64,000 nt of DNA from an uncultured bacterium (GCA_964529445.1 CAZGWJ010000001.1:14863-78862); one strand, 5' to 3'. Numbered from the stretch's first letter, positions 6,269 through 60,231 are shown. Numbers and translations are program-made. The notes: generated from the sequence alone by a model not told the origin.

Positions 6269-6320
6269 TATTCTATTATTTGTCAAGGGGCAAATGGCGA
6301 GGATAACGGCTTAATTCAAC

Positions 6321-6395
6321 GCCAACGCGAAGCCGTCCGCCTTTGGCGAGACCTCGCCATCAAGGGTTCTGGATGGCGGGCGAAGTCGCGAAGAA
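6321..6395. repeat. About 75-nt intergenic element, copy 2 (see 1806..1880)
   Basis: gccaacgcgaagccgtccgcctttggcgagacctcgccatcaagggttctggatggcgggc is near-identical to copy 1. The distal part is degenerate. Confidence 0.8.
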
Positions 6396-6512
6396 CTGCA
6401 TGGATCGGAGACGGAAACGGCCTGAGATTGCCACACCTCAGACCACGCCTACCCGCCCTGAGCGAGGCCGAAGGGTCGGCGCTGAGGTTCACAATGACGG
6501 ATATAGCACAAA

Positions 6513-14200: not shown

Positions 14201-14461
14201 AAGGAGGTCCACGTGGAATTGCCGGTCTCTCTGGTGGATGCGGCTGGTGAGATGCTCGAGGGCGTGATGGACCTGGCGTTCGTCGAGGACGGGAAGTGGG
14301 TCGTGGTGGATTACAAGACCGACCGGGATCCGGCGCGTTTCAAGGAGAAATATGAAGCGCAGTTGAAGGCGTATGCGAGGTTGCTGGAGGCGTCAACAAA
14401 GATGCCGGTGAAGGAGAAGGTGCTGTTGTTCCTGAGGTCCGGGGAAGAGGCCCGGGTCTAG
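11234..14461 (+). CDS. AddA/UvrD-like ATP-dependent helicase with C-terminal PD-(D/E)XK nuclease domain
   Basis: Walker A VDASAGTGKTHLM, UvrD-type motifs (QDTDPLQ, VGDPKQSIYRFRGAD), and the C-terminal nuclease motif MDLAFVEDGKWVVVDYKTD. The GTG start at 11234 overlaps the upstream stop (GTGA). Confidence 0.85.
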   Translation: MTAPRKPADTKIRERLVRARGVNVTVDASAGTGKTHLMMDRLLFLLEEEHVPLPRIAAITFTKKAAGELVTRLRERIEKAERADGADRALLRRALQDLEQASVATIHSFCAGLLSEYPVEAGVDPRLSVLEEDQARAFESECWDGFLRALKAEAARPLLDALHAGLTLTHVQELKRSLLSFRSLLSRPEAGPLPAPEGVRSALDAAAKVFGRERSHCTDEEDALFVIVEGVGAWRERLAGLKGTEQALAAARQGEPKFNRKGSEKNWGGKARITAVREAVADVADAWREYQTLFGEVLLRNLTGFLWDYLDQYAARKSEAGFLDFNDQLLKTRDLLLHHPEVREALKRRYDHLLVDEFQDTDPLQVQIVFLLCEERGRSAGRFEDVVLEKGKLFLVGDPKQSIYRFRGADVEMYEDARRRVAAQGGLNETLGVCFRMRPALVAFSNRFLAPLFEGSGDYVPQTAHRGEPEDPRAIPPLWVLSVSMPEGKVSADERRLLEAKAVASFLKRGLLAGAHTVPDRDGKGNHLLGPGDVAVLFKELSTYEDVYEKAFREAGLPYAVVGGRRFYNRMEVANLTAILLALRSPADEAAVAACLRGPAYGFSDEDLLSFRLAGGRFLYLEDPPELADPDGRFKAAFRQLGALHEAARTLSTPDILLRILLDTALMAVTAAQHYGEQRVANLLKVVDQSRDLERSGGNSFRNFVEWLQARREEAAREGEAPGPDQAGDRVTLMTVHQAKGLEFPVVVVAGGGDWDKDESFLPDRSSGRLETKLGGYRTSGMEEAMGREAARQQAETQRLLYVACTRPRESLVIPLLPDTGEKKFLAPFLGALTKDEGTHDLAPGLQGHFIAFSDEPGKRADLAAFQVLLANAKADPKAVRSLADALDKSAEERRNRIRELHDAGRRVTAHRVAEEEGENASASSEAMAFGSTVHRLMAGGVGARKEPSAATIRSVGLASGLSKTAVSEAQGLIARAFASPLILRAMASKEVHVELPVSLVDAAGEMLEGVMDLAFVEDGKWVVVDYKTDRDPARFKEKYEAQLKAYARLLEASTKMPVKEKVLLFLRSGEEARV

Positions 14462-18881: not shown

Positions 18882-19036
18882 GAGGTCAGTTTATCAAAGC
18901 CGTCTGTGAGCCGCCAGCCGGTATTCCTTGACCCTCCGGGATGACGAGCCGAGCTTTTTTACCCCTCCAGGCCGACATCCATGCGTCGGGATGGGATTTC
19001 AAGGGGGACGAGTCCACCTCAGTCCGGGGCATCCAT

Positions 19037-30727: not shown

Positions 30728-30804
30728 GGACGTTTAGCTCAGCTGGTTAGAGCGTCGCGTTCACATCGCGAAGGTCGCTGGTTCAAGTCCAGCAACGTCC
30801 ACCA
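30728..30804 (+). tRNA. tRNA-Val (anticodon CAC)
   Basis: GGACGUU acceptor stem, GCUC D-stem, anticodon loop UUCACAU, TΨC arm GCUGG-UUCAAGU-CCAGC, discriminator A, encoded CCA. Confidence 0.85.
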
Positions 30805-40335: not shown

Positions 40336-40352
40336 CCCAACATGACCATTAG

Positions 40353-40418
40353 CCACCGATGGATGGGGATGGATCCGCCTTCGGCGAGATCTCGGCACCA
40401 ATGTTAATTGGTGACGGA
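40353..40418. repeat. Structured intergenic element GATGGATGGGGATGGATCC + CCGCCTTCGGCGAGATCTCGGC core + hairpin CACCAAT-gttaa-ATTGGTG. An inverted homologue is at 53591..53652.
   Basis: The core matches the CCGCCTTTGGCGAGACCTCGCC core of the 75-nt elements at 1822..1843 and 6337..6358. Confidence 0.7.
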
Positions 40419-40610
40419 CACCGATTAGGCTTCATCGGTCATCCCGAGACGGATTTCGTGAGGGATCCCCGGTTCTGCCCATTCGTGTGTAGGGCCTCGC
40501 CCATGGCATGGTTTGGTAGCGCTTCCACCCTATTTGCCGTTCACTTCATTCTGCACGCCTGTTGTATCATTCCACTCACGACATTCAACCCTTTCGAAGG
40601 CGGTGCCTGA

Positions 40611-44259: not shown

Positions 44260-47200
44260 TTAGCGTACTCCATATAGAAGGTTCCTCAGAACCTTTCCTT
44301 GTTTAGTTGTGAACCTGAACTGGAACCCGTACTCCCGACCACTCCACGGGCGGGTGCATTGCGCGCCCACCTTGATCAGCACCTTGTTCCAGCCCTTCTT
44401 CAATGAGACCGGCTTCTTGAAGAGCGTCCTCAACAGCAATCCCTTCTCGTTCACGACGAGCTTTCCGTTCACCCAGGCCTTCATCGAATCATCACCTGCG
44501 GCCTCGACATAGGCGGTCCTCGCCTTGTCCGACCACACCGAACACTTGGCGTAGGCCACGCCCTGCTCGGGGAAGGTCACTCCGCATTCCCTGAAGTCCA
44601 CGTAACCGAAGCAGGTGAATTCCCGGCCCGGGGCCCTCAGCCACGACAGGCCCTTCCCATAGGACGCGAGATCCGCGTTCTTCTCGGGGCCGTACACACG
44701 GTCCAGACCCTTCCCGTCCTTGTTGTCGAAGGAACCCACCACCGAGAACCAGGCGGGGAATCCGGAACCCCACTCCACGTTGGAGACCTGCTTCTTCACG
44801 GTCTTCTTGCCGTCGAGAACCTCGACGGTGATCTTGGCCTGGCTCAAGACCGGGAGGGCATCGGCCTGGGGGCTCAGCTCCCAAACGAGATGGCACAGTT
44901 CTCCCACCTTTACGATCAAGTCCGGGTCCGGCTTGCTGTCCACGCCCCAGCCCGCGGGGGCAACGATTGCGACCTTGGCACCCAATTCACGCCCGGTGTT
45001 GTTCTCGATGAGGGCATGGATCTTGAGGATCCCTCCGGTCTTCAGGTCATGGTCAACATGGATCTGGATGGGGTTCAGGTTCTCTACCCCACGCTTGCCG
45101 TCATGCACGACGCTCTTGTAGCGGCGGCCCTTGGGCAGGATCCCGGTGTTTCCGTCGACCTTCCCGACCTTCAAGCGGCCCTTGGCGTTCGTCGCGAGGG
45201 GTGTCTCCGCGTATTGGCCCCTCTCATATCCATAGGTGAGACCGTCGTCGTCGTAGAGGACGAAAGCACCGGGTTTCCCGGCGTAGGTATGCACCGTGAC
45301 GTCGGTCAACGGCTTCTCAAGGGCATAGGCCATCTCGGGGCCCATGGGGATGATGCTTCCGGCCCGGGCGAAGAGGGGGATGCGACCCAAAGGCGCACCT
45401 ACCGTGATCGTGCGGCCGCCCTTGATCTTCTCGCCCGTCCTGAAGTCGTACCAATCCCCCTTCGGCAGATAGACCTCACGCGTGCGGGCGTCCTCTTGCA
45501 GGATGGGGGCCACCAACAGGGCTGGGCCGAACATGAACTGGTCGGTGGCGGCGACTGCTTTCGGGTCCTCGGGGAAAGCCATCAGCATGGGACGCATGAT
45601 GGGCGCGCCGGTCAGGTGCACCTGGCGGGCCAGGGAATAGATGTAGGGCATCAGGCGGTAACGAAGGGCGATATGGTCGGCCACGATCCTTTCGATCGCA
45701 GGGCCGTAGGTCCAGGCCTCGTTCTCGGGCTTGGTGCCATGCGTGCGGAACAGGGCGTTGAACACGCCCCACTCGAACCAGCGGGCGTAGAGTTCGGGCG
45801 TGAAGGGACGGTAGGTCATGAAGCCGCCTGCGTCGGTGCACCACCAGGGTTGTCCCGAGAGGGAAACGCCTTGGCCGATCACCACCTGGTCGCGGAAAAC
45901 CTCCCAAGAAGCCTCGATGTCGCCGGACCAAAGCGTGGTGCCGTAACGCTGGACGCCGGCCCAGGTCGAACGGGCGAGGTTGAAGACGCGATCCGTGAAG
46001 TCCTTGCGCTGACCCTCGTAGAGACCCTTGGTCCAGAGCAGGGTATAGATGTTGTGCACGCGTTCGCGCGCCCCCAGGAAATGCTTCGTGGCAGGCGGGT
46101 GGTGCTCCAACTCGCCCATGTCGGTCCAATAACCGCGCACACCCAGCTCGAAGAGGGGCTTGATGTCGCCCCACCAGGTCTTGCGGGCCGCAGGATTCGA
46201 ATGGTCCACCGAGGGGTTGCCCGGTCCGGGCATGTCGTTGATGAAGCCGCGGGATTTGTAGGACTCGTAGAGCCTTGAGGTGCGGGTCATGTAGGGATGC
46301 TGGGCCTGCAACACCTTCACGTTAAGTTTTTCCATCTCGCGGAAAAGGGCGGGGGGATCGGGCCAGTTCTCCTTGTCCCAGGAGAGGTCGCCGAAATCCT
46401 TGAACCACATCCAGTCGATGACGAGCACGTCGAGAGGAAGGCCACGGCGGCGGTATTCGCGGGCCACGCGCAGGAATTCCTCCTGCGTGCGGTAGCGGTT
46501 CTTGCATTGGATGAAGCCCAGCGCCCACTTGGGCGGTATGGGGGAGGCGCCCGTGAGGGCCGCGTAACCGGCCAAGAGGCCGTCGGCGCGGTCGCGCAGA
46601 ATGAGGAAGAGGTCCATCACCCCGTCGTCGAGAAGGATGGCCATCCGGTCCGGGTGGTTCTCGCCGGAATGCTGGTCCCAGGCCCAGGGCGCGGAGCACC
46701 AGTTCCAGCCGAAGTCGGTGGGGCCTTCGCCCACCTTTGCCCCGCCCACGGCGAAGCGCATGGCCCAGGACGAGTTGACGAGGCAACCCCATCCGGCGCT
46801 CGTGATGAAGAAGGGCATGCCGTCGTTGCCACTGCGGCGCTTGCCGGCCCATTCGTGCCACATGCGGCGCTCGTGCCCGCGCTGGTCGAGGTTCGCCATG
46901 GGGTCCTGGCCGAGACCGTAGACCCTCTCGTCCTTCTTCAACTCGAACCGGACCACGGTGACCTGCTTGAGCCCGGTCGGGGGCGGGGCGATCTTGTTCA
47001 TGCGGTGGGCGGCCAGCGTCCGGGGCTCGTGACGGACCTCGGCGGTTTTGCCAGTAGGCGTGGAGAGGATCAGGCGGCCCTTGGGGTCGGTCACGCGGAA
47101 CGAGAAGGGCGAGAGGGTGACTTCGAGGATGCGGGAGGCGGTCGCGAGGCGCATCTTACCGGCGGATTTGGACAAACGGGCCGGGATGAAGCAGGGGGGA

Positions 47201-47346
47201 TGCTCGACGACGAAGGTCTCCTCGACCTTGGGGGTGCCGGGCGTGAAGCGGTAGCGCAGGATGTCGGGGGAGGTGAACCCCAGGCGGGCCTCGCCGCGCG
47301 GGGTCTTGACGGTCAATTCACTCTCATTGAAAAAATAGGCAGGCAT
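44260..47346 (-). CDS. GH31 alpha-glucosidase/alpha-xylosidase with C-terminal beta-sandwich (CBM/galactose-binding-like) domain
   Basis: WALGFIQCKNRY, LDVLVIDWMWF (catalytic nucleophile region), YWTDMGE. The start is probably MPAYFFNESE at 47346. Confidence 0.85.
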   Translation of the reverse strand: MPAYFFNESELTVKTPRGEARLGFTSPDILRYRFTPGTPKVEETFVVEHPPCFIPARLSKSAGKMRLATASRILEVTLSPFSFRVTDPKGRLILSTPTGKTAEVRHEPRTLAAHRMNKIAPPPTGLKQVTVVRFELKKDERVYGLGQDPMANLDQRGHERRMWHEWAGKRRSGNDGMPFFITSAGWGCLVNSSWAMRFAVGGAKVGEGPTDFGWNWCSAPWAWDQHSGENHPDRMAILLDDGVMDLFLILRDRADGLLAGYAALTGASPIPPKWALGFIQCKNRYRTQEEFLRVAREYRRRGLPLDVLVIDWMWFKDFGDLSWDKENWPDPPALFREMEKLNVKVLQAQHPYMTRTSRLYESYKSRGFINDMPGPGNPSVDHSNPAARKTWWGDIKPLFELGVRGYWTDMGELEHHPPATKHFLGARERVHNIYTLLWTKGLYEGQRKDFTDRVFNLARSTWAGVQRYGTTLWSGDIEASWEVFRDQVVIGQGVSLSGQPWWCTDAGGFMTYRPFTPELYARWFEWGVFNALFRTHGTKPENEAWTYGPAIERIVADHIALRYRLMPYIYSLARQVHLTGAPIMRPMLMAFPEDPKAVAATDQFMFGPALLVAPILQEDARTREVYLPKGDWYDFRTGEKIKGGRTITVGAPLGRIPLFARAGSIIPMGPEMAYALEKPLTDVTVHTYAGKPGAFVLYDDDGLTYGYERGQYAETPLATNAKGRLKVGKVDGNTGILPKGRRYKSVVHDGKRGVENLNPIQIHVDHDLKTGGILKIHALIENNTGRELGAKVAIVAPAGWGVDSKPDPDLIVKVGELCHLVWELSPQADALPVLSQAKITVEVLDGKKTVKKQVSNVEWGSGFPAWFSVVGSFDNKDGKGLDRVYGPEKNADLASYGKGLSWLRAPGREFTCFGYVDFRECGVTFPEQGVAYAKCSVWSDKARTAYVEAAGDDSMKAWVNGKLVVNEKGLLLRTLFKKPVSLKKGWNKVLIKVGAQCTRPWSGREYGFQFRFTTKQGKVLRNLLYGVR

Positions 47347-47570
47347 GGTTATCTCCGATAGAAAGTAAACCCGCAGGGGAGGCGGGTGCCGGCATTCTAT
47401 ATCTAGCAAACGGAAATGAGGAAAATTGAAATCGGTACAACGAAAGAACCATGACCGTCAATTCAACGACGTTTGTGGTGGGCGCGCCCGTGTTTTGCGA
47501 TGCTTCCATTCGCAATGACGAATTATATGACGGGGTCGTTCTTTGCGGGCTTGGCGTACTTGGCGGTTAA

Positions 47571-50153
47571 TTAATCGGTCGTGCCGAAAGCCTCGGCCGG
47601 TATAGGTTCCCACTTCTCGGCTCCGGGCGGCATCCACAGGAGGTGCAGGGCCATATCGGACCCTTCCTCCTTCCTGTATTCCAGCGTCAGGGGGTAGGAT
47701 CCCGGTCCCAACATCAGGCCGGGCGAGCGGCCCCCGTCGTTCACGGGCAGTTCCTTGCCAGCGACCGTCAGGATCGCCTGGTCCAGCGTCAGCACGTCGA
47801 AGCGGTATCGGCCGCCCTGGGTCACCTTCAACCACCCTTGCCAGCGGATCGAGAAGGGCGGGAAGTCCTCGAACGGGAAATCCTTCTTGTTCGTGAAGTT
47901 GATCTGAGGGTCCCATTGGATGGAAACGAGTTCCCCCTTGTTCGCGTAGTAGCCCTTGAGTCCGGTGGCCAGGGGCAAGGTCGAGAGGAACATCGGGGAG
48001 TCGAAGCGGGCGGATTTTCCGCTCGGCAGAATCATCTGGACCTCGGCGCGCGCGGGTCCGGGCCGGTGGATGAGCGCCAACCTCACCCGGTGGAAGCCGC
48101 GCACCAGCGTGACGGGCCTGTTCCAGGCGACCGGGTCGCGCCCGATCCTCAGGTAGGCCTCGCCATTGGTCTTGGCCCGGAAAACGTAGGCACCGCTCTG
48201 CTCGAACCAACCGACCGCATCCAGCGTGGCCTTGTACGGTCCATCCGGCAGGGCATCGCCCAGTTCCCGGAAAGTGCCGGTTCCATCCTGTCCCGTGATG
48301 ACGGCTTTCATGCCCTGGGCCGCCCGGGCGGCAGCCTCCGGGATGGTGAGGAAGGTCAGAAGCGCCCGGCCCTTCGGGTCGAGGAAACGATCTTCCTTCG
48401 CCTCCGGATAGAGGCGTTTCAAGTGAGCCACCACGCCGGATTTGTATTCCTCAAGGACATAAACCAGGTCGCGGCCCTCCGGGAGGACGGGCGCCGCCAA
48501 GTGCCGGGGGTATTCGAAGGTGTGGACGTTATCGCGGTTCCCGTAGGAGAGGAAAGACACCGTATTGTGCCGGCTGTAGAGGGGGGTCACGCAGAAGACG
48601 GCTTTCTTCCCGAGACGCTCGATCATGCGGCCGATCCGCGTGGCCTCCACGTGGGGTCCGTGCCAGCAATCGGCATTCTTCGCCTGCGAGATGAAGTAAA
48701 CGTGGAAGTTCAGGTAGGTGATGAGGGCCAACAGGACGGCCAAGCCCTTGTTGCGCCTCCTGCGCCATTTCGGCTTGAGGACCTGGAGCCGGTCGTAAAG
48801 ACGGACGAGTGCGGTGCCCGCGAGGATGGCAATGAAAGGCGTGAGCGAGAAGAGCCGACTGGATTGCGCGGAGGAGTCGGCGGCCAGCAGGGCCGGCATT
48901 GTCATCACGATGAGTCCTGCGAGGGCAAAGGCCTCCCATTTGCGGCGGCGGATGTGGCGCACGGCCTGCAGGATCCCCAGGACGAAGAGAATGCCCGTGA
49001 AGGGGTCCAGCATCGGAGCGCCGGGCAGGTTGTGACGCGGGTTCAGGTCGCCCTGGTAGTTGAACATCAACTTGGTGCCGGTGATGTTGCGGACCAGGGG
49101 CATCACGCTCTTTTCGGCCTTCATCTGCGAGAAGATCCAGAGATCGCCTTCCCGGTTTCCGATGTTCTTCGAGAGGACCATGTGAAGCAGCAGAGGGAGT
49201 GCCAATGCGACGAAGGCGATCAGCATTGCCCGGTGGGGCTTGAAGAGAAGGGCGGCCTGTCTGATCCCCCTGGGACGGAGCAGGAGCACGAAGACCAGGA
49301 GGAGCAGGGGGGCGATCTTGAAGGCCTGATAGGTATAGAGGCCCAGACCGAGCACGACACCCGACAGGATGAAGGCCCAGAGACGCTTCTTCACGACCTT
49401 CCGGGCCACCAGGTAGAGCGCGAGGGCGCCGAAGAGATAGAGAGGCACTTGCACGGTCGGGTAGCCGTTGCGGCTGTAGATGACGTGCCAACGCATGACG
49501 GCCAGCAGGAAGAGGGATGCCAGGGCCACGCGGGGGCCCGAGAAGTGGCGAACGACGTAATAGACCAGGGGCATCGCCAGGAGCGCCAGGAAGACGAAAA
49601 AGAGGTGGAAAGCAAGATAGGAGGATCCGAAAACCCCGAACCAACCGGCCAATTGCGTGAAGAGAAGGGGTTCGGGGACCGCCTGGGTGTAGGCGTCGAA
49701 GAAGGGGTTCCATCCTTCCTTCAATATGCGGAGGGCGTTGAGGCCGGTGAGACCCTGGTCGCTGTGCATTCCGGAGGGCATCTCGGAGAGGCGGAAGACG
49801 CGCAGGAGGAGGGCGAGGAGCATCGTGGAGCCGAACAAAGTGGCTTCGACGCGAAAGGGAACGGGTTTTTCCCTGGGCGGCGTCTTGCGGTCGGGGGGGA
49901 CGAAAAACAGGAGGAGGACGGCGGCGAGGACGAACAGGGAAAGCCCGATCCAGAGGGTGGGTTTCACCCCCGGGATGACAAGGCAGGCCTGCCCCAGGAT
50001 CAAAAGCCCGAGGGCCAGCCAGTAGGCATGGGCCTTGAGGACCTTTTTCACTATGAGGGGATTATATAAGGAAACCACCGATTGGCGGTTTCGATTTTGT
50101 AGGGGCGACCCCATGCGGTCGCCCACTCGAAATTCACGGATCGGGTGGCCCAC
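47571..50153 (-). CDS. GT39/PMT_2-family membrane glycosyltransferase (paralogue 4) with C-terminal PA14-like domain
   Basis: MHSDQGLTGLNALRILKEGWNPFF and GDLNP motifs. The C-terminus WQGWLKVTQGGRYRFDVLTLDQAILTVAGKEL...LTLEYRKEEG is PA14-like. Confidence 0.75.
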   Translation of the reverse strand: MGHPIREFRVGDRMGSPLQNRNRQSVVSLYNPLIVKKVLKAHAYWLALGLLILGQACLVIPGVKPTLWIGLSLFVLAAVLLLFFVPPDRKTPPREKPVPFRVEATLFGSTMLLALLLRVFRLSEMPSGMHSDQGLTGLNALRILKEGWNPFFDAYTQAVPEPLLFTQLAGWFGVFGSSYLAFHLFFVFLALLAMPLVYYVVRHFSGPRVALASLFLLAVMRWHVIYSRNGYPTVQVPLYLFGALALYLVARKVVKKRLWAFILSGVVLGLGLYTYQAFKIAPLLLLVFVLLLRPRGIRQAALLFKPHRAMLIAFVALALPLLLHMVLSKNIGNREGDLWIFSQMKAEKSVMPLVRNITGTKLMFNYQGDLNPRHNLPGAPMLDPFTGILFVLGILQAVRHIRRRKWEAFALAGLIVMTMPALLAADSSAQSSRLFSLTPFIAILAGTALVRLYDRLQVLKPKWRRRRNKGLAVLLALITYLNFHVYFISQAKNADCWHGPHVEATRIGRMIERLGKKAVFCVTPLYSRHNTVSFLSYGNRDNVHTFEYPRHLAAPVLPEGRDLVYVLEEYKSGVVAHLKRLYPEAKEDRFLDPKGRALLTFLTIPEAAARAAQGMKAVITGQDGTGTFRELGDALPDGPYKATLDAVGWFEQSGAYVFRAKTNGEAYLRIGRDPVAWNRPVTLVRGFHRVRLALIHRPGPARAEVQMILPSGKSARFDSPMFLSTLPLATGLKGYYANKGELVSIQWDPQINFTNKKDFPFEDFPPFSIRWQGWLKVTQGGRYRFDVLTLDQAILTVAGKELPVNDGGRSPGLMLGPGSYPLTLEYRKEEGSDMALHLLWMPPGAEKWEPIPAEAFGTTD

Positions 50154-50283: not shown

Positions 50284-51708
50284 TTGGGCAAGATCACGTT
50301 CGGCACATCCGGTTGGCGCGCCATCATTGCGGACGAGTTCACCTTCGCCAACGTCCGGATCGGCGTGGCGGCCATCGCGAAGCACCTTCTGGCCCAGAGG
50401 CAGGAGGGCGCCGGGGTTGTGGTAGCCGGGGACTACCGCTTCTTCTCCGAGAAATTCATGGAACTGACCTGCCAGGTTCTGGCGGGCTATGGCATCACCT
50501 CGTTCCTCTGTCCCGTCGGTACGCCCACGCCGACGGTGTCCTACGAACTGATCCGTCGCAAGGCCGCGGGCGCCATCAACTTCACGGCCAGCCACAATCC
50601 CTACGACTACCAGGGACTCAAATTCAACGGCGCCGACGGAGGACCCGCTCCCGTCACCGTCACGAGGCAACTGGAAGCCACGGCGGCCTCCCTGCAGGAT
50701 ACCCGGGAGGTCGTCGAGGAGATGCCGATCGCGCAGGCCCGGTCCCGCGGCCTCGTCGTGGACATCGACCCGAAAGAAGCCTACTTCGAGCGGTTGAGGG
50801 AGCTGGTGGATTTCGACGTCCTGCGCCGCGCGAAGCTTCGCGTGGTGGTGGATGCCATGAACGGGAACGGCCGGGGTTACCTCGATGTCCTCCTGGAGGA
50901 AGCGGGGGTGAAGACGAAGGTCCTGCGGGATTCCCGCGACCCTTTCTTCGGTTTCCACCACCCCGAGCCCGGCGCGAAGGAACTGGCCGATGCCGTGCGC
51001 GAAGTCAAGGCCTGGCCGGCCAACATGGGCCTGGCGAACGACGGCGACGCCGACCGGTTCGGCGTCCTCGACAATGACGGGACCTACATCACACCCAACC
51101 AGGTGGTGGCGATCCTCTTCGAGCATCTCCTGAAGACGCGTGACTGGAAGGGTTGCGTGGTGCGTACCCTGCCCACCACCCACCTCATCGACGCCATCGC
51201 GAAGGCCCATGGGGTGGAGGTGCGCGAGACCCCGGTCGGTTTCAAATACATCGCCGAGGTCATGGGAAGGGAATCCATCATCATCGGCGGCGAGGAATCG
51301 GGGGGACTCACGGTGCACGGCCATGTCCCGGAGAAGGACGGCATCCTGGCGTGCCTCCTCATGGCCGAGGTGGTGGCCAAGACCGGTCGCAACCTGGGAG
51401 CCATCCTCAAAAACATGGAACGGGAGTATGGCACGGTCCTGGGCGACCGGATCAACATCCCCTTGAAGCCCGGGCTCAAGGAGACCATGATCGCGAAGCT
51501 GAAGGGAACACCTCCCTCGGAGATGGCGGGGAAGCGCGTGGTGAACGTGAGGACCGAGGACGGCTTCAAGTTCATCCTCGAGGGCGACGAATGGATCATG
51601 ATCCGCTTCTCGGGCACCGAACCCCTGATGCGCTGTTACGTCGAGGCGCGTTCGCCGCAGGGCCTGGAGAACCTCCGCGAAGCCGGCAGGAAGCTGACGG
51701 AGATCTGA
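50284..51708 (+). CDS. Phosphoglucomutase/phosphomannomutase (alpha-D-phosphohexomutase family)
   Basis: FGTSGWRA, phosphoserine loop TASHNP, metal loop DGDADR. TTG start with an AAGAGG RBS. Confidence 0.9.
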   Translation: MGKITFGTSGWRAIIADEFTFANVRIGVAAIAKHLLAQRQEGAGVVVAGDYRFFSEKFMELTCQVLAGYGITSFLCPVGTPTPTVSYELIRRKAAGAINFTASHNPYDYQGLKFNGADGGPAPVTVTRQLEATAASLQDTREVVEEMPIAQARSRGLVVDIDPKEAYFERLRELVDFDVLRRAKLRVVVDAMNGNGRGYLDVLLEEAGVKTKVLRDSRDPFFGFHHPEPGAKELADAVREVKAWPANMGLANDGDADRFGVLDNDGTYITPNQVVAILFEHLLKTRDWKGCVVRTLPTTHLIDAIAKAHGVEVRETPVGFKYIAEVMGRESIIIGGEESGGLTVHGHVPEKDGILACLLMAEVVAKTGRNLGAILKNMEREYGTVLGDRINIPLKPGLKETMIAKLKGTPPSEMAGKRVVNVRTEDGFKFILEGDEWIMIRFSGTEPLMRCYVEARSPQGLENLREAGRKLTEI

Positions 51709-51895: not shown

Positions 51896-52930
51896 TTGGA
51901 CACCCCCCTTCGACCCTATTCCCCCCTCTCCTTCCTCAAGGGACCCGTCTTCCTCTGGGTCCTTTGGACCGCTGTCATCGGCGGCGTGGCCTGGTGGTAC
52001 ACCCGCGACCTTTTCATCGCCCAGGCCGTGGGGGGTACCGGCGCCATCGCCCTTCTCCTACATTCCATCTGGCTCAAGGTGCGCCTCGACAGCCGCTGGC
52101 TCGTCGATCTCCAGGTGTTCCTCGTCCGCACCGGCGCCTTGTCCGATCAGCACCGTGTGAAGCGCATCTTCATGCCCTGGGAGGCGGGTGCCGCCCGGAG
52201 GAAATTCCTGGCCTCGACCCTGGAAAATGTGCGCGACATGGAAAAGAGGATGCACGAGGCGCGTCATGCCCTCGACAAGTTCGTGGGGACCAAGGCCTCC
52301 CAGTTCGCCGCGAAATACGCTTCGGGCAACCAATGGGGCGGGGAGATGGTGCCCGTCTATGTCCTTTTCGCCGATGTGCGGGGGTTCACGCGCATGACGG
52401 AAAAATTGAAGCCCACCGAGACCGTCACCTTCCTGAACCGCTTGTTTTCGGCCCTCGAGGAGGTGGTCCGGGAATCCGGCGGCGAGGTCAACAAGTACAT
52501 CGGGGATTCCATCCTGGCTTTCTTCCCCCGCTCACTCGAGGATGAGGCCCCGGCCGTCAAGCGGATCCTACTCGGAGCCCTCCGGATGATGGACCGGTTC
52601 CTCGAGATCGACGCGAAATACAAGAGCGATTACAGCGTGACGCCGGAGGTGGGATTCGGCATGGGCTTGGCCGCGGGCGTGGCCGTCCTCGGCAACGTGG
52701 GGTCCATGAACCGCATGGAGTTTACGCTGGTGGGCGATACCGTGAATACGGCCTCCCGCCTCTGCTCCATCGCTGAGCACGGCCAGATCCTCGTGAACGA
52801 GGAGATGGCCCGGGTCGCGGAGGGGATGTTCCGCATGGAGGCCCTGGGGGCCGTCAAGCTGAAGGGGAAGGCCGAGCCGGTCGTTCCCACCGTGATCATG
52901 GGGGAGAAACTGCAGCCCGGGCTGGCATGA
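51896..52930 (+). CDS. Membrane-anchored class III adenylate cyclase (paralogue 1)
   Basis: Two N-terminal TM helices, then the cyclase homology domain (CHD): FADVRGFT (metal Asp), NKYIGDS (metal Asp plus Lys), a Thr in the LVGDTVNTASRL region (Lys/Thr pair, so adenylyl-specific). Confidence 0.8.
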   Translation: MDTPLRPYSPLSFLKGPVFLWVLWTAVIGGVAWWYTRDLFIAQAVGGTGAIALLLHSIWLKVRLDSRWLVDLQVFLVRTGALSDQHRVKRIFMPWEAGAARRKFLASTLENVRDMEKRMHEARHALDKFVGTKASQFAAKYASGNQWGGEMVPVYVLFADVRGFTRMTEKLKPTETVTFLNRLFSALEEVVRESGGEVNKYIGDSILAFFPRSLEDEAPAVKRILLGALRMMDRFLEIDAKYKSDYSVTPEVGFGMGLAAGVAVLGNVGSMNRMEFTLVGDTVNTASRLCSIAEHGQILVNEEMARVAEGMFRMEALGAVKLKGKAEPVVPTVIMGEKLQPGLA

Positions 52931-53066
52931 TATGGTAGAATCCGTTTTTCAGCCGTTGTTCCATCCTCGGGAAGTGCCGGGGCGAACCGGGTGGCTCGCC
53001 CGAACGTGAACATCCTGGGCGGCTGGCCTGTGGGCCGCCCAGGGGAAACAGGAATCCGGGTCGTTC

Positions 53067-53411
53067 ATGTCAGAACCCACCGCTTCGAAAAACGACAGGG
53101 AGATCATCGCCGCGGCTGTCCGCGTCATGATGCGGGTGGCAGCGGCCGTCCTCGTGTCGGCGCTCGTCCAGATCATCTTCGTGACCGTCTTCCTGATGTC
53201 GCAGGTCTCCCTGGGAGAGAAGTACGCATTCATGCGCGATTTCATGCCCGCCTTTTCCGCCCTCGCGGGCGTCTCCCTTCTCACCGTGATCAAGGGGAAA
53301 CCCTTCCTCGTGGCGGCCATCGCCTTTGCCCTCGTGGTGACCGCGATCATGTGGTATTTCCAGACGGCGTTGTTCGTCCTGTGGGGAGCGATGAGCGCCA
53401 CGGGGGGATGA
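53067..53411 (+). CDS. 114-aa three-TM membrane protein, hypothetical, between cyclase genes 1 and 2
   Basis: GC3-rich codon usage and three hydrophobic helices. Confidence 0.45.
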   Translation: MSEPTASKNDREIIAAAVRVMMRVAAAVLVSALVQIIFVTVFLMSQVSLGEKYAFMRDFMPAFSALAGVSLLTVIKGKPFLVAAIAFALVVTAIMWYFQTALFVLWGAMSATGG

Positions 53412-53590
53412 GCCGAACGACAGTGAGGAGTTAGCCCGTTCGACTCCTTTCAGTCGCTCAGGGCGCGGCGACTGGGACGCCGCGAAGTGAGGAGTTGAAG
53501 GAAGAACGGCAGTTGATAAACCCACGTCGATAGTCGATCCGGTTTTCCCTCCCGAAGGTCTTTCCTCCAAGTCCGTGTCGTATCGGAACC

Positions 53591-53652
53591 CGTCACCGAA
53601 TGCTTTCGGTGACGAGGTCTCGCCAAAGGCGGATCCATCCCATCCATCAGTG
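53591..53652. repeat. Inverted homologue of the 40353..40418 element: hairpin CGTCACCG-aatgcttt-CGGTGACG + GAGGTCTCGCCAAAGGCGG core + GGATCCATCCCATCCATC
   Basis: Its reverse complement reads gatggatgggatggatccgcctttggcgagacctcgtc, and copy 3 reads gatggatggggatggatccgccttcggcgagatctcggc. Confidence 0.7.
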
Positions 53653-53753
53653 GCAAAATAAGCCGTCTTTTCGTCGTTCCTGTATCCCTCCCATCTCCCG
53701 CGTCTGGTGGCCCTCGCCTTTTTGCGTTAAACTGTCCTCAAGAACGCCAACCG

Positions 53754-54818
53754 GTGAGCGCCCCCATGCCCGAGTCCCCCAAACCGCGGTTTCCCGGTTT
53801 TCTCCGATCGCTCCTGCCCTGGCTTGCCTGGCTGGGCGTCAGCGCCGCGGTCGGGGTTTTCCTCTCGGCGGCCTTCAACAACAGGGATGTCTTCCTGTGG
53901 GCGGCCGGAACCGCAGCGGTCGCCCTGCTGGTTTTTCGTTGGGCCTATGACGCTTACCGCCTGCTGTCCGTGATGGATCTCTTCTATCGGCATCATATGC
54001 TTCCGGCCGTCCTCCGGCGTCCCTGGATCTTCTGGCCCTGGGGACCTGCACTGGGCTTGAGAATCGTCCTCCGCGCGACCGTGCACGAGTACCAGAAGGT
54101 CTCCAAGAAGATGCACGAGGCCACGGGGGCGCTCGAGAAGTTCGTGGGCGCAGGCGCGGCCGAGCGCAGTATCCGGGCCGCCGCGAAACCGGCCATGGGC
54201 GGGGAATCCCGGAGGGTCTTCTGCCTGTTCGCGGATGTCCGCGGCTTCACGCGCATGACCGAGCGCCTCAAGCCGGAGGAGACGGTGGATATCCTGAACC
54301 GCATCTTCACCGAACTGGACGCCGTCATCGTCCAGTACGGGGGAGAGATCAACAAGTACATCGGGGACGCCGTTTTCGCGTATTTCAGGTGTCCCTACGA
54401 CAACGAGGAGGTCGCGGCCCGCAACGTCCTGCGCGCGGCCTTGAGGATGCAGGAGTCCTTCGACGCCTTGAACGTGAGGATCCGGAACGCCTCCTACAGC
54501 GCCCCGGTGGAGATCGGGCTGGGCATCGGGTTGACGGCGGGAACGGCCATCCTGGGCAGCATGGGCAGTGCCAACCGGATGGAATACACCCTCATCGGCG
54601 ATGTCGTGAACCTGGCCTCCCGGCTGTGCGCCATCGCAAAACCCCTTGAAGTGCTCGTGAACGAGGAGATGGCCGAGATGGTGCAGGAGTATTTCGACAT
54701 GACCTCCCTGCCCCCCGTGGAGTTGAAGGGGAAGACGGGCCTGCAGGTCCCCTATGTCATCGTCGGCGAGAGGATGATGCTGACCAAGGGGCTCGCCGAG
54801 AAGGGAAAACGTCTTTGA
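53754..54818 (+). CDS. Membrane-anchored class III adenylate cyclase (paralogue 2)
   Basis: FADVRGFTRMTERLKPEET...NKYIGDAVFAYF...LIGDVVNLASRL. Confidence 0.8.
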   Translation: MSAPMPESPKPRFPGFLRSLLPWLAWLGVSAAVGVFLSAAFNNRDVFLWAAGTAAVALLVFRWAYDAYRLLSVMDLFYRHHMLPAVLRRPWIFWPWGPALGLRIVLRATVHEYQKVSKKMHEATGALEKFVGAGAAERSIRAAAKPAMGGESRRVFCLFADVRGFTRMTERLKPEETVDILNRIFTELDAVIVQYGGEINKYIGDAVFAYFRCPYDNEEVAARNVLRAALRMQESFDALNVRIRNASYSAPVEIGLGIGLTAGTAILGSMGSANRMEYTLIGDVVNLASRLCAIAKPLEVLVNEEMAEMVQEYFDMTSLPPVELKGKTGLQVPYVIVGERMMLTKGLAEKGKRL

Positions 54819-55870
54819 ACCGCATTCCTTCCGAAAAGGTTCCTCCGCCGCGGGAACACCGGCCTGGGCGGGATGGTGCCGTCGAGGCGGCGTTCATCCT
54901 CTTCGCCCTTCTGGGGGTCGCCGGGATCCTCTTGTCCGCGAACCGGGATTCCTTGCCAGCCGCCTGGAGGATCGCCGCTCCCTGGATGACGGGTCTGGGG
55001 GTCTTGGGCCTGCTTTGGTGGTGTGGCGCATCGCTGGTGATGCTGCTCCAGCACCAGCTGGATGCGGTCAAGGCCCTTCCGGCCGGCTTCCAGCGCATGA
55101 GGTTGTGGCAGGTCGGAACCCCGCTGGATGGATTCCACCGCCTGGCAACGGCACTCGCGAAGGCGCAGGTCGAAAGGGATGAACGGATCGCTTCCCTTCA
55201 GGCCAGCCATGACCGCTACGTCGGGACCACGATGTCGGATCGGGCGCGCCGCATGGCCTCCCAGGAGGAACTGGGCGGCGTCAAGAGGCGCGTCTTCGTC
55301 ATGTTCTCCGACATCCGCGGTTTCACCCGCATGACCGAGCAGTTGAAGCCCGAGGAGGTCGTCGAGGTTCTCAACATCTGTTTCACGGAGTTCGAGAAGG
55401 TGATCCGCGAGAACGGGGGGGAGATCAACAAGTACATCGGCGACGCGGCGTTCGCGTATTTCCGGATGCCGCACGGCGATCTCGAAGCGGGGGTCCGGGC
55501 CGTTCTTCGCAGTGCGGTGAAGATGCAGGAGCGGTTCGATTTCCACAACTCCCGATTCAAGGTCTCCTACAGCAAGCCGGTCGAGATCGGGCTGGGGCTC
55601 GGCGTGACGGCGGGGGAGGCCATCCTCGGGAACATCGGTTCGCCCCAGCGCATGGAGTTTACCCTGATCGGGGACGTGGTGAACCTGGCCTCGCGGCTTT
55701 GCGGCATCGCCCGGCACGGGCAGATCCTCGTCAGCGAGGAGATGGCCGAGATCGCGAAGGCCTGGTTCGAGCTTTCGCCCCAACCGGAGGTGCAGTTGAA
55801 GGGAAAGCTGGTGCCCCACCGGCCTTACGCGGTCGTGGGGGAACGGATGGGTTTCGGGAGGGATATGTAG
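54815..55870 (+). CDS. Membrane-anchored class III adenylate cyclase (paralogue 3). The TTG start overlaps the upstream stop.
   Basis: FSDIRGFTRMTEQLKPEEV...NKYIGDAAFAYF...LIGDVVNLASRL. Confidence 0.75.
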   Translation: MNRIPSEKVPPPREHRPGRDGAVEAAFILFALLGVAGILLSANRDSLPAAWRIAAPWMTGLGVLGLLWWCGASLVMLLQHQLDAVKALPAGFQRMRLWQVGTPLDGFHRLATALAKAQVERDERIASLQASHDRYVGTTMSDRARRMASQEELGGVKRRVFVMFSDIRGFTRMTEQLKPEEVVEVLNICFTEFEKVIRENGGEINKYIGDAAFAYFRMPHGDLEAGVRAVLRSAVKMQERFDFHNSRFKVSYSKPVEIGLGLGVTAGEAILGNIGSPQRMEFTLIGDVVNLASRLCGIARHGQILVSEEMAEIAKAWFELSPQPEVQLKGKLVPHRPYAVVGERMGFGRDM

Positions 55871-57165: not shown

Positions 57166-57168
57166 TCC

Positions 57169-57206
57169 GCTCACGCTTCACAGACCTTGATGGGTCTCTG
57201 CGGACA
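57169..57206. repeat. Dispersed element gctcacgcttcacagaccttgatgggtctctgcggac (decamer family plus the 14-mer shared with 44182..44195)
   Basis: CACGCTTCACAGAC also occurs at 44182..44195. GGTCTCTGCGGAC matches the decamer core. Confidence 0.55.
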
Positions 57207-57369
57207 AGCATCATTCTTGGCTTCTGGTCTCGAAGGGTTCGGCCCTCTCCCGTGGTACATCCCCCGGACGGGGGGCAAGGGGCGGGGGGGATGCCGTTGA
57301 ATTTCCCTCTCCCTCGACGGGAGGGGGAAGGGTGAGGATCCGATCCCGGGTTGCGCGAAGGGAAACACC

Positions 57370-57693
57370 ATGGCGGCACTGATCGTATTCGTCACCACGC
57401 CGAACCGCCGCGTGAGCGAACGGCTCATGCGCATCGCCGTGGAAGGCCGTTTCGCCGCCTGCGCCAACCGGTTGCCGGGTTTGGCGAGCCGATATTGGTG
57501 GAAGGGGCGCGTCGAGACCGCGCGGGAGGAACTGCTGATCCTCAAGACCACGGTGCGCAAGTATCCCTCCCTGGAGCGCGTTCTTCGCAAGGCCCATCCC
57601 TACGAAGTGTGCGAGATCCTGGCCGTGAAGGTCGCGGCTGGCAACCCGTCCTATCTGGGATGGATCCAAGAAAGCCTGGGTGTTTCCCGATGA
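57370..57693 (+). CDS. cutA: Divalent-cation tolerance protein CutA
   Basis: MAALIVFVTTPN...ACANRLPGLASRYWWKG...PYEVCEILAV, a typical CutA1. Confidence 0.85.
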   Translation: MAALIVFVTTPNRRVSERLMRIAVEGRFAACANRLPGLASRYWWKGRVETAREELLILKTTVRKYPSLERVLRKAHPYEVCEILAVKVAAGNPSYLGWIQESLGVSR

Positions 57694-59072
57694 TGGCCGA
57701 GCAGGAGTCCTATGTCGAATCCCTCCGTTGGATGGTGCGAGCCCGTTGGGTCGTGCTGTTGCTGGCGACCATTCTGGTGTCCGCCGTCGAATGGGTGACA
57801 CCGGGGCCGGCCCGCAACACCTTCGCGTGGATCGTCATCCTGATCGAGACCTGTTTCAATCTCGTCTACGGTTTCATGGCCGGTTACCGGAGCGTCGCGA
57901 GGCCCCTTCTGGCGGCCGGGTTCCTGGTCGACGGGGCCGTCCTCTGCATTTGGGTGGTGTTTTCAGGCGGCGCGGTGAGCGTCAATGCCACCTACCTTCT
58001 CATCATCCTCATCGCTTCCAGCATGGTCCATTCCCCCCGAATGGTGGCCGGGATCGGGGTGGCCATCGCGGCCATGTTCGTCGTCGCCATGCGAATCAGT
58101 TACGACCTGCACATCTCGGCTTGGGTTCCTGCGCAGGGCATGAACCCGTTCTGGGCCCTGCTGGAATCCTCCCCGGAGGAAACCCGACGTCTCGTGTACC
58201 TCCAGCAGACCCTCCGATGGGTGGTCTGGATGGCCGCCGTGACGGTCATCAGCACCTTCCTGGTTCGGCGCATTTGGCAGAGGGAGGAACGCCTCCGCGA
58301 ATCGGAAAGGGGCATCGACCAGCAACGACGCCTGCTCCAGCTGGGTGAACTGGCCGGGCGACTGGCGCACAGTCTCAACACCCCCTTGGGACTCATTTCG
58401 GGCAACATGGAAATGCTGATCCGGAAAGTGCGCAAGGGAAGCGCGGTCCACAAGGACCTCACGAGGATCATGGAGTTCGTGCACCGCGCCGTGAAGACCC
58501 TGGAGGATGTCCTGGCCTACAACCGCCAGAGTCTCTCGCATATCCGGGACATCGACATTTCCGGGTTGGTGCGCGTGGTGGTGGAGGCCGTGAATCCCCG
58601 CCTGGAGAAATGCAGGGGGCGTGTCATCCTCGACCTGCAGGAGGACATTCCCGCCTTGCGGGGTTATCCCGAGGCCGTTCAACAGGCCCTCTTGAACCTG
58701 GTGGAGAACGCGGTGGATGCGCTCGAAGAGGGCGGGACGGTGGTGGTCGAGGCGCGCTTCGATCCGGGTCCCGTCCGCTTGTCGGCCCAGGACAACCGCG
58801 GGGACATCCGGATCGTCGTGAGGGACAACGGGAAGGGCGTGCCGACCCAGGACTTGAAGCGGATCTTCGAACCCTTCTTCACCACCAAGGAATACGGCCA
58901 CGGCACCGGCTTGGGTCTTCCCATCGTGAAGCGCATCATGGAGGAACATGGTGGTCAGATCCGGGCGGAGCGGAACGTCGAGCGGGGCATGAAGTTCACG
59001 CTCCTGTTCCCCATGAAGGCGGTGCCGGTCATGGACCGGGAAGGGTTGCCGGTCGATTTCTTCGAGCGATAA
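57690..59072 (+). CDS. Sensor histidine kinase (polytopic membrane N-terminus, HisKA + HATPase_c)
   Basis: MMAEQESYV... The start overlaps the cutA stop (ATGATG). H-box HSLNTPLGLISGNMEML, G2 box GTGLGLPIVKRIMEEHGG. Confidence 0.85.
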   Translation: MMAEQESYVESLRWMVRARWVVLLLATILVSAVEWVTPGPARNTFAWIVILIETCFNLVYGFMAGYRSVARPLLAAGFLVDGAVLCIWVVFSGGAVSVNATYLLIILIASSMVHSPRMVAGIGVAIAAMFVVAMRISYDLHISAWVPAQGMNPFWALLESSPEETRRLVYLQQTLRWVVWMAAVTVISTFLVRRIWQREERLRESERGIDQQRRLLQLGELAGRLAHSLNTPLGLISGNMEMLIRKVRKGSAVHKDLTRIMEFVHRAVKTLEDVLAYNRQSLSHIRDIDISGLVRVVVEAVNPRLEKCRGRVILDLQEDIPALRGYPEAVQQALLNLVENAVDALEEGGTVVVEARFDPGPVRLSAQDNRGDIRIVVRDNGKGVPTQDLKRIFEPFFTTKEYGHGTGLGLPIVKRIMEEHGGQIRAERNVERGMKFTLLFPMKAVPVMDREGLPVDFFER

Positions 59073-59090: not shown

Positions 59091-59570
59091 ATGAGCAAGA
59101 AGAGGAAACCCGTGAAGACGGCGAAAGCCGTCCAGGCGGCGCGTCCCACAAAAGCCGCGATCCAGGCCCGGTTGCTGGTGGTGGACGATGAGGCCGAATT
59201 CGCCTCGATGATCCGGAAAACCCTGGAATCGGAGGGATACAGCGTCGATACGGCCCTGAACGGGACCCAGGCCATCGAGATGCACCGCAAGCACGCCTAC
59301 GATTTGGCCCTCGTGGACCTCAAGATGCCGGACATGACGGGACTGGAACTGCTCCAGTATCTCAAGGTGCGGGACAAGCGGATCTCGGTCGTCCTGATGA
59401 CCGCCTTCGGATCGCTGGCCGTAGGCATCGAGGCGCTGAAGAAGGGCGCCAGCGACTACCTTCCCAAGCCGTTCAAGTTGGCGGTCCTCAGCTCGAAGGT
59501 CCAGGATGCCCTGACCCGGCGTGCGAAGTACCTCGAGGAACAGGCGCATTCGCCCATCGACGAGATGTGA
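59091..59570 (+). CDS. Single-domain response regulator (CheY-like receiver)
   Basis: LLVVDDE ... DLALVDLKMPDMTG ... VVLMTAF ... YLPKPF. Confidence 0.85.
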   Translation: MSKKRKPVKTAKAVQAARPTKAAIQARLLVVDDEAEFASMIRKTLESEGYSVDTALNGTQAIEMHRKHAYDLALVDLKMPDMTGLELLQYLKVRDKRISVVLMTAFGSLAVGIEALKKGASDYLPKPFKLAVLSSKVQDALTRRAKYLEEQAHSPIDEM

Positions 59571-59574
59571 AGCC

Positions 59575-60231
59575 TTGAAGCCCGCGAGATCCGGAAAAGA
59601 CCGGGGCGTTCCCGGCCCGACGGTGGGCCGCCTATCCCGGTACCTGCGCGCCTTCTCGCAGTTCGAACGCGACGGCCGGAAAGTGGCTTCCTCCCGGGAA
59701 CTCGCCCGGGCCACCGCCTTGAGCCCGGAGGCCGTGCGGAAGGACCTGGCCCATTTCGGCCAGTTCGGGCGGCGCGGCATCGGTTACGACGTGAAGAGCC
59801 TGGCCGCCCAGGTGAGGGAGATCCTGGGCCTGTCGAAGCCCCGGGCGGTCGCCATCGTGGGTGTGGGTAACCTCGGGACCTCCCTCCTGCAGTACGGCGG
59901 GTTCGCGAAGGCGGGGTTCAAGGTCGAGGCGGCCTTCGACACGGATCCCTCCAAGGTGGGATGGGAATTGGAGGGCGTGAGGATCTGGCCCATGGGAGCC
60001 CTGCGGCAGACCCTGCGCGAGAAGCGCATCGAGATCGCCATCCTGGCCGTCCCGGCCGGCCAGGCCCAGCGCGTCACGGACGAACTGGTGGATTCCGGAG
60101 TGCGCGCCGTCCTCAATTTCGCGCCGATCGTCCTTTCCACCCCGCCATCGGTGATGGTGAGGGCGGTGGATCTGGCCTCCGAGATGGAGCGCCTGACTTA
60201 CTTCCTGGACCGGGAGATTCCCGGCCGGTGA
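59575..60231 (+). CDS. rex: Redox-sensing transcriptional repressor Rex. The start is uncertain: TTG at 59575, or the ATG at 59521 overlapping the response regulator.
   Basis: VGRLSRYLRAF (wHTH), Rossmann AIVGVGNLG, and the C-terminal ILAVPAGQAQ...AVLNFAP. Confidence 0.8.
   Translation: MKPARSGKDRGVPGPTVGRLSRYLRAFSQFERDGRKVASSRELARATALSPEAVRKDLAHFGQFGRRGIGYDVKSLAAQVREILGLSKPRAVAIVGVGNLGTSLLQYGGFAKAGFKVEAAFDTDPSKVGWELEGVRIWPMGALRQTLREKRIEIAILAVPAGQAQRVTDELVDSGVRAVLNFAPIVLSTPPSVMVRAVDLASEMERLTYFLDREIPGR

Follow-up and report, generated by a model that had tools for sequence, protein, structure and literature searches.

Why should one bacterial locus carry three related cyclase genes side by side? 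The question is raised by a 64,000-nucleotide (nt) stretch of DNA from an uncultured bacterium (GCA_964529445.1 CAZGWJ010000001.1:14863-78862), here termed the window and numbered from its first letter, in which three genes for membrane-anchored class III cyclases (copies 1, 2 and 3) lie in tandem, with an open reading frame (ORF) for a small membrane protein between the first and the second. An earlier note on this DNA had offered two readings, local tandem amplification or a module feeding several inputs into cyclic AMP (cAMP) signaling. Our analysis favors the latter and rejects a recent amplification, given the 0% support for monophyly of the three copies and their old orthologues. The probable explanation is that three separately maintained membrane-anchored class IIIb cyclases constitute a multi-input cAMP module in an old signaling operon. 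Beside the domain identity, catalytic residues, topology, synteny, paralogue age and purifying selection demonstrated below, we infer the multi-input function, which is favored over local tandem amplification.

Three predicted class IIIb adenylate cyclases

All three products match the Pfam model PF00211, with bit scores of 82.5, 88.3 and 84.2 for copies 1, 2 and 3 respectively against a cut-off of 21.9 (E-values of 1e-23 to 1e-25), which confirms the earlier description of three tandem, paralogous, membrane-anchored class III cyclases. Their overall pairwise identity is 38–44%; the catalytic domains are about 50–60% identical, the N-terminal and linker regions 22–36%. Copy 1 starts with TTG, preceded at 6 nt by a Shine-Dalgarno-like GGAGAG. 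The start of copy 2 that is kept in relatives is ATG 53766, which is also the start in public gene calls, whereas GTG 53754 is unconserved there; exact-sequence look-ups of copy 2 from GTG 53754, and of P0085, returned nothing. Residue numbers below are those of the 354-residue form of copy 2. Full-length homologues of approximately 345 amino acids (aa) are numerous in metagenomes, and a scan of GTDB genomes with back-translated INK[YF]IGDA and LF[SA]D[VIL]RGFT, which are generic class III patterns, gave among the matches listed distant cyclases of 31–43% identity.

Searches with phmmer against PDB sequences recovered CyaB of Pseudomonas aeruginosa (PDB: 3r5g) as the best match with an E-value of 1e-25, followed by Cya2, OaPAC, bPAC and Spirulina CyaC; CyaB, CyaC, OaPAC and bPAC are class IIIb adenylate cyclases known from experiment. 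Likewise, the top Foldseek matches of the AlphaFold model of copy 2 are CyaB and CyaC (PDB: 1wc0), with E-values of about 1e-16 and target TM-scores of 0.8–0.9, and Cya2 (PDB: 2w01) is among the closest structures. In the phmmer alignments the lysine of INKYIGD and the threonine of EYTLIGD fall on the Lys/Thr pair of CyaB and OaPAC, and the VNLASRL motif supplies Asn and Arg at the expected places. A family alignment of 90 sequences, all three copies among them, is invariant at the metal-binding D161 and D205, the substrate-defining K201 and T279, and the transition-state residues N286 and R290. The Lys/Thr pair is the hallmark of class IIIb, in which Thr replaces the Asp of class IIIa, and stimulation by bicarbonate or CO2 has been reported for Thr-type class IIIb enzymes. 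On these grounds the three genes probably encode active class IIIb adenylate cyclases, with cAMP as the product predicted from the two specificity residues. Both metal-binding Asp residues and the CyaC-like Lys/Thr pair, from which the earlier note had predicted cAMP, are thus confirmed; a mis-assigned Lys/Thr pair or missing Asn/Arg, which it had named as fatal to the prediction, were looked for, and all four residues are in place.

An old and composite array

The window's array was compared with related loci, two of which (L085 and L086) come from the same organism. The order copy 1, small ORF, copy 2, copy 3, in some cases with an adjoining ATPase, recurs in L132, L133, L134 and L088, whose copy 2 is 96, 82, 79 and 72% identical respectively, and L087 (copy 2 67% identical) has copies 1, 2 and 3 and the ATPase without the small ORF. 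Copy 1 orthologues are present in L132, L133, L134, L087 and L088, and the orthologues of each copy in five other genomes reach down to 65–67% identity. Recurrence of the array in five related genomes shows that it is old.

The phylogeny that the earlier note had proposed for the three domains was run as a bootstrapped neighbour-joining tree of 57 taxa with 300 replicates. The orthologue clades of copies 1, 2 and 3 were each recovered with 100% bootstrap, and monophyly of the three together with 0%. Copy 1 grouped with a subfamily ending in '...GLA' (P0087-P0108) with 100% support, or 92% when the catalytic domain alone was used, and copy 3 grouped with the single-copy clade that occupies the syntenic position in relatives with 51–70%. 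A recent local tandem amplification is thus rejected, and for copy 1, which sits in another subfamily with full support, local amplification of any date is rejected as well. The 'GLA'-type protein P0099 in L089 sits at another locus, after cytidylate kinase; in L089:10001-16480, this copy 1 relative follows aromatic amino-acid genes and the cytidylate kinase and is itself followed by proteins of 569 and 1236 aa without Pfam domains.

Taken together, the sequence comparisons indicate that the array is old and was put together from different sources. By position, and probably also by descent, copy 3 corresponds to the single cyclase beside the ATPase in relatives; copy 2 retains the ancestral upstream region, and together with copy 3 it resembles a tandem duplicate of ancient date. 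Copy 1, accompanied by the small membrane protein, comes from another paralogue lineage, found elsewhere in other genomes. Ratios of nonsynonymous to synonymous substitution rates (dN/dS) against orthologues are 0.05–0.31 for the cyclases, 0.16–0.41 for the ATPase and 0.29–0.52 for the small ORF, and all of them are thus maintained by selection.

A membrane and linker module private to the family

Each cyclase has two hydrophobic segments joined by an outer loop of 4–12 residues according to hydropathy, and the AlphaFold model likewise contains two transmembrane helices, so that the two to four helices counted earlier reduce to exactly two per cyclase. In the model of copy 2, which has a predicted local distance difference test (pLDDT) score of 89, the first transmembrane helix spans residues 15-41 and the second residues 45-79, continuing into the cytosol. 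It is followed by a loop (80-96), a linker helix (97-131) ending in ALEKFVG, a short helix (133-143) and the cyclase domain (151-340), whose first strand begins at 151. At the end of the linker helix, the motif (K/R)(F/Y)VG is conserved, and G132 is nearly invariant in the 90-sequence alignment. Homology to mycobacterial Cya (PDB: 7yzi, 5o5k; Rv1625c/Cya) as detected by HMMER begins about 40 residues before the catalytic domain. A long linker helix followed by a short helix before the catalytic domain is the layout described for the cyclase transducer element (PMC5995499), and the same succession is found here, with the linker helix ending in an aromatic motif and the short helix preceding strand 1.

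The "HAMP-like stalk" of the earlier note survives at most as an outline, in that the cytosolic extension of the second transmembrane helix (about 65-79), the loop 80-96 and the helix 97-131 have a HAMP-like helix-loop-helix arrangement in what is a monomer model only; the Pfam HAMP model (PF00672) has no match at E<=10 in six N-terminal regions and none in the full proteins. The helical linker itself holds as a long modeled helix, and the copy 2 peptide quoted for it is where that helix ends and passes into the cyclase transducer element. When the first approximately 118 residues were searched as a profile, 20 proteins were retrieved among 1.84 billion representatives, and each full-length match is a cyclase of 340–375 aa. 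The module of two transmembrane helices plus helix-loop-helix is private to this cyclase family.

A proposed module of several inputs and one output

Class III cyclases build their active sites at the dimer interface. We propose that the three membrane-tethered class IIIb enzymes act as dimers that would convert ATP to cAMP, and that their modules of two transmembrane helices and helix-loop-helix, diverged between the copies, would relay signals by way of the linker helix and transducer element. Each copy would most likely have its own membrane-proximal input, or its own set-point, and all would share cAMP as output; conserved catalytic domains (50–60%) combined with diverged membrane and linker parts (22–36%) argue for different inputs and one output. 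The modules would sense only membrane or cytosolic cues because there is almost no outer loop. Copies 2 and 3 would be produced in a fixed ratio and may also heterodimerise, and the small membrane protein, which occurs only beside copy 1, may be a partner of that enzyme.

Several observations weigh against this explanation. The outer loop is too short for ligand binding, so that the notion of multiple inputs derives only from N-terminal divergence. The cAMP assignment depends on two specificity residues. No CRP-type or cyclic nucleotide monophosphate (cNMP)-binding domain was detected in the ORFs of at least 60 aa in the window, by a crude test of low sensitivity that combined a PROSITE-like pattern with phmmer using Escherichia coli CRP. 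In the tree, the bootstrap values for copy 2 are 0–3% for a sister relation to copy 3 and 10–49% for a grouping with the single-copy clade, and its description as an ancient tandem duplicate is therefore based on position, shared upstream motif and coupling and not on the tree. Finally, the operon partners described below are conserved in one lineage only, and since all homologues of the ATPase are at least 48% identical, the synteny could partly reflect shared descent instead of function.

An alternative that is compatible with the multi-input explanation, and which we consider possible if doubtful, is that copies 2 and 3 pair chiefly with each other, as an obligate or favored heterodimer comparable to the C1/C2 halves of mammalian cyclases and to the heterodimeric rhodopsin cyclases, with translational coupling securing a 1:1 ratio. 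The stop codon of copy 2 and the start codon of copy 3 share a 4-nt overlap (TTGA), preceded at about 8 nt by a purine-rich site, and an NTGA overlap (ATGA or GTGA) is kept in L132, L133, L087 and L088; the overlap with its upstream purine-rich site is thus present in five genomes, and in the sixth, L134, the ATG lies 1 nt after the stop. The translational coupling proposed earlier hence appears, from its recurrence in relatives, to be a conserved feature. Moreover, copies 2 and 3 are always paired, neither being seen alone in any genome, and the general location of class III active sites at the dimer interface fits a heterodimer. However, obligate heterodimers typically show complementary degeneration, of which there is no sign here: both proteins retain all six catalytic residues, and each could work as a homodimer.

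Operon partners and a candidate receptor

The features of the array and its conserved neighbors are collected in Table 1. The earlier account of the locus had overlooked these conserved partners, namely the Orc1/Cdc6-like ATPase, CutA1, the histidine kinase, the response regulator and Rex.

Table 1. Coordinates of the cyclase array, its flanking genes and associated sequence elements in the window
Feature	Position	Strand	Remarks
Phosphoglucomutase/phosphomannomutase (PGM/PMM)	50284..51708	+	Pfam PGM_PMM_I-IV; conserved upstream neighbor
Cyclase copy 1	51896..52930	+	344 aa; two transmembrane helices, linker, class IIIb cyclase domain; PF00211 E 3.8e-23
Small membrane protein	53067..53411	+	114 aa; three hydrophobic segments; orphan family
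Hairpin and 20-mer core of dispersed repeat	53586..53633	+	Inverted repeat; outside the conserved array
Promoter-/operator-like motif TTGCGTTAAACTG	53722..53734	+	Upstream of copy 2
Cyclase copy 2	53766..54818	+	350 aa from ATG; 354 aa from GTG 53754; PF00211 E 6.3e-25
Cyclase copy 3	54815..55870	+	351 aa; adjoins ATPase; PF00211 E 1.1e-23
Orc1/Cdc6-like AAA+ ATPase with C-terminal winged helix	55936..57165	+	409 aa; Pfam nSTAND1, AAA_16, AAA_22
CutA1, PII-like trimeric small protein	57370..57693	+	107 aa; PF03091 E 1.3e-31
Membrane histidine kinase	57690..59072	+	460 aa; HisKA, HATPase_c; start overlaps CutA1 stop (ATGA)
Single-domain response regulator	59091..59570	+	159 aa; PF00072 E 1.2e-30
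Rex-like redox-sensing repressor	59521..60231 (ORF limits)	+	Put_DNA-bind_N, CoA_binding; true start probably 59575 or 59623

Synteny was surveyed by scanning metagenome contigs with the ATPase, followed by tblastn mapping. On long contigs the gene order is PGM/PMM, one cyclase, an ATPase of about 400 aa (nSTAND1, AAA_16), CutA1, histidine kinase and response regulator, the last occupying the same position in L001 and L003 and being followed in L003 by the Rex-like gene, likewise in the same position. The PGM is 65–70% identical and syntenic in 20 related loci, and each of the 20 loci with both PGM and ATPase has exactly one cyclase between them. The ATPase is syntenic in all loci, CutA1 in all loci reaching that position, and the histidine kinase is also syntenic; overall, the position of the cyclase locus between PGM and the CutA1-histidine kinase-response regulator genes is fixed in about 25 loci of one lineage. 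In L117 (336-482), the ATPase directly follows PGM after a gap of 146 nt with no cyclase between, a layout implying that the ATPase-CutA1 module can occur with no cyclase next to it. As the first genes of a conserved operon, the cyclases are assigned to chromosomal housekeeping signaling, and they would be functionally coupled to the operon's other products. A literature search for an adenylate cyclase and a Cdc6-like ATPase in one operon found none.

The ATPase family is narrow, comprising 108 proteins with no less than 48% identity to the one in the window, and its Walker A (GEPGxGKS) and Walker B (DDxEK) motifs are conserved. The AlphaFold model of the window's ATPase (pLDDT 87.5) and the Foldseek comparison show an AAA+ base, a lid and a winged helix, the top match being an archaeal Orc1/Cdc6 (PDB: 2qby_A) with an E-value of 1.3e-10 over 383 columns; the Pfam nSTAND1 model matches with 36.6 bits (cut-off 27.1). 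CutA1 is recognized by PF03091 with 108.7 bits (cut-off 22.4). The 204-nt spacer between the two genes (57166-57369) contains G-runs (GGGGGGCAAGGGGCGGGGGGG) and C/G-rich palindromic stretches, whereas in relatives these genes are 3–40 nt apart or overlap.

We know of no nucleotide binding by CutA1. It is conceivable, though rather improbable, that the lineage's cAMP receptor is to be sought in CutA1, by analogy with SbtB, or in the Orc1/Cdc6-like ATPase with its winged helix, in which case membrane-derived cAMP would switch an effector of a new kind that feeds the histidine kinase-response regulator-Rex circuit. CutA1 is classed as PII-like, and SbtB of the same superfamily senses cAMP (PMC9974498); CutA1, together with the ATPase, is therefore a receptor candidate.

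The window's remaining genes include three paralogous PMT_2 (ArnT/PMT-like) membrane glycosyltransferases at 16764-18881(-), 19037-20947(-) and 47571-50153(-), the last with a C-terminal PA14 domain and situated just upstream of PGM, and a GH31 glycosidase at 44260-47409, which place the cyclase operon in a glycan-metabolism neighborhood. Farther away, an AddAB-type pair (8025-14461(+)) consists of a PD-(D/E)XK nuclease followed by a UvrD-like helicase with a PD-(D/E)XK domain, and a tRNA gene at 30728-30801(+) is the sole Rfam match within the window.

Alternative products and roles

That the enzymes make a nucleotide other than cAMP, for instance cyclic GMP, is suggested by the presence of the guanylate cyclase Cya2 of Synechocystis among the closest structures (PDB: 2w01), but the invariant Lys201 and Thr279 align with the Lys/Thr of the proven adenylate cyclases CyaB and OaPAC. 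Furthermore, adenylate cyclase activity has been reported for the E488K variant of Cya2 (PMC5995499), and Lys at that position therefore goes with ATP. We accordingly regard a different product as very unlikely.

Still less probable is an anti-phage role, be it Pycsar-like or STAND/NLR-like, in which the cyclases would produce a cyclic nucleotide alarm, with either the nSTAND1 ATPase or the small membrane protein as effector. It draws on matches of the PADLOC PycC models to all three cyclases (E-values of 1e-23 to 1e-28), on the neighboring ATPase matching nSTAND1, which was first defined as a clade in conflict systems (PMC8195603), and on a small protein with several transmembrane segments within the array. 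However, the PycC matches span only the shared cyclase domain, no PADLOC effector model matches any neighbor, and there is no Pfam effector either. The small protein lacks a cNMP-binding domain and is absent in L087, while the ATPase has an Orc1/Cdc6-like fold with winged helix and neither sensor repeats nor an effector domain; its sole PADLOC match is a marginal one to mad8 (E-value of 0.002). The Lys/Thr pair is that of purine (ATP) cyclases. A mobile defence island would behave in the opposite way to this locus, whose place between PGM and the CutA1-histidine kinase-response regulator genes does not change across about 25 loci of one lineage. The earlier rejection of a Pycsar system therefore stands, there being no effector near the cyclases and the locus showing conserved, vertically inherited chromosomal synteny.

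Recent local amplification of one cyclase gene in this genome, as a dosage effect or transient duplication, can hardly be entertained even though the three genes lie side by side on one strand with one architecture, and most relatives hold a single cyclase at this position, because the copies are merely 38–44% identical, each has orthologues in five other genomes down to 65–67% identity, their monophyly has 0% support with copy 1 placed in another subfamily at 100%, and all are under purifying selection.

The small membrane protein and the spacers

The 114-aa ORF with three transmembrane segments noted earlier between copies 1 and 2 is supported by three hydrophobic segments in its hydropathy profile, by homologues and by a dN/dS of 0.29–0.52. 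It has no match in Pfam, NCBIfam or PADLOC. The homologues, of 113–114 aa and 89, 66, 50 and 39% identical, each lie between copy 1 and copy 2; only 4 were found in 5.8 billion clusters, plus the one in L088, all inside this gap, and the C-terminal WYFQxALFVLWG is conserved. On this evidence it is a real gene under purifying selection, known only within the array. It is not a detached membrane anchor of a cyclase, since its sequence does not resemble the N-terminal parts of the cyclases.

Between the small ORF and copy 2, conservation is confined to the last approximately 45 nt of the spacer, which hold the motif TTGCG[AT]TAAACT[GA] and ATG 53766; TAAACTG is invariant across 5 aligned relatives and the remainder of the spacer varies. 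When up to two substitutions are permitted, every array has this 13-mer 5' of copy 2, and at least 11 loci with a single cyclase have it 5' of that gene; copies 1 and 3 are never preceded by it. A promoter or operator function is probable. The TAAACTG core, extended as (A/T)TAAACTGACC, also occurs at 18887-18893(-), upstream of the PMT_2 ORF 16764-18881, and at 6522-6528(-), and may be a common promoter element of the organism instead of a cyclase-specific operator. A scan for sigma-70 promoters and terminators gave no result above chance.

The "structured repeat element" of the earlier note is partly real, as a hairpin and a 20-mer, but it is not part of the conserved array. The 20-mer GAGGTCTCGCCAAAGGCGGA occurs four times in the window, at 1821-1840(-), 6336-6355(-), 40374-40393(-) and 53614-53633(+), as against 0.03 expected, each time preceded by a hairpin of differing sequence; the copies at 53582-53657 and 40349-40425 match at 79% over 77 nt. 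This suggests a REP- or MITE-like (repetitive extragenic palindromic or miniature inverted-repeat transposable element) genome-specific repeat. The stretch that holds it at 53586-53633 is missing from the 96%-identical relative L132, and Rfam gave zero matches in or around the array at permissive and gathering thresholds; the repeat is therefore an incidental insertion outside the cyclase system. A structured regulatory RNA in the 356-nt spacer was considered and dropped, because the spacer folds only modestly more stably than shuffled sequences (z -2.35) and its sequence is unconserved in relatives. Elsewhere, nearly identical stretches of about 70–110 nt containing the 20-mer lie in the same orientation (-) at ~1780-1890 and ~6295-6405, 4515 base pairs apart; they flank ORFs at 2232-5068 and may represent either a terminator region that was duplicated or the two ends of an insertion.

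Comparison with known systems

CyaB (PDB: 3r5g) and Spirulina platensis CyaC (PDB: 1wc0) share the fold and the six catalytic residues, including Lys/Thr, at about 27% identity in the catalytic domain, but differ in their input parts, which here are a hairpin of two transmembrane helices and the family-private helix-loop-helix. The Rv1625c/Cya type shares the long dimerising linker helix and the short helix directly before the catalytic domain, whereas Rv1625c belongs to class IIIa, with six transmembrane helices and a Lys/Asp pair; the transducer motif is (K/R)(F/Y)VG here as against FGRY in Cya2. In terms of gene arrangement, the closest parallel is offered by Rv1318c-Rv1319c-Rv1320c (with Rv3645) of Mycobacterium tuberculosis, likewise three neighboring paralogous membrane class IIIb cyclases in one genome. 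The Rv1318c-Rv1320c proteins have six transmembrane helices and a HAMP domain, whereas the present ones have two transmembrane helices, no Pfam HAMP match and unrelated operon partners, so that the class IIIb domain and the tandem layout alone are shared. Two surveys of cyclases (PMC2447327 and PMC3961136) mention these genes together.

Pycsar PycC proteins have a homologous cyclase domain (PADLOC E-values down to 8e-28), but the present locus has no PycTM or PycTIR effector, a purine-type Lys/Thr pair and stable chromosomal synteny. The partner ATPase shares the AAA+ base, lid and winged helix with archaeal Orc1/Cdc6 (PDB: 2qby_A) at about 19% identity; in contrast to archaeal Orc1 and the STAND conflict proteins, it is bacterial, is encoded in a signaling operon and lacks sensor repeats and effector domains. 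SbtB and CutA1 are members of the same PII-like superfamily, and the link of the latter to cAMP here is by gene neighborhood only.

Implications

Bacteria with multiple cyclases and adjacent cyclase paralogues are already known, and the enzyme class is well understood. The present locus, in which one ancestral cyclase slot appears to have given rise to three anciently retained, differently wired enzymes, would be a clean natural case of this kind, and the two coupled copies would be useful for asking how homo- and heterodimers sort among co-expressed class III cyclases. The compact membrane and linker module, private to the family, is a candidate cyclase input of the intramembrane or lipid-sensing type. 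Orc1/Cdc6-like ATPases and CutA1 are, to our knowledge, two proteins without an established bacterial signaling function; the tight and exclusive linkage of the cyclases to both makes them a testable candidate for a non-CRP cAMP receptor. If one of them were indeed the receptor, CutA1 or the bacterial Orc/Cdc6-like ATPase would gain a defined signaling role.

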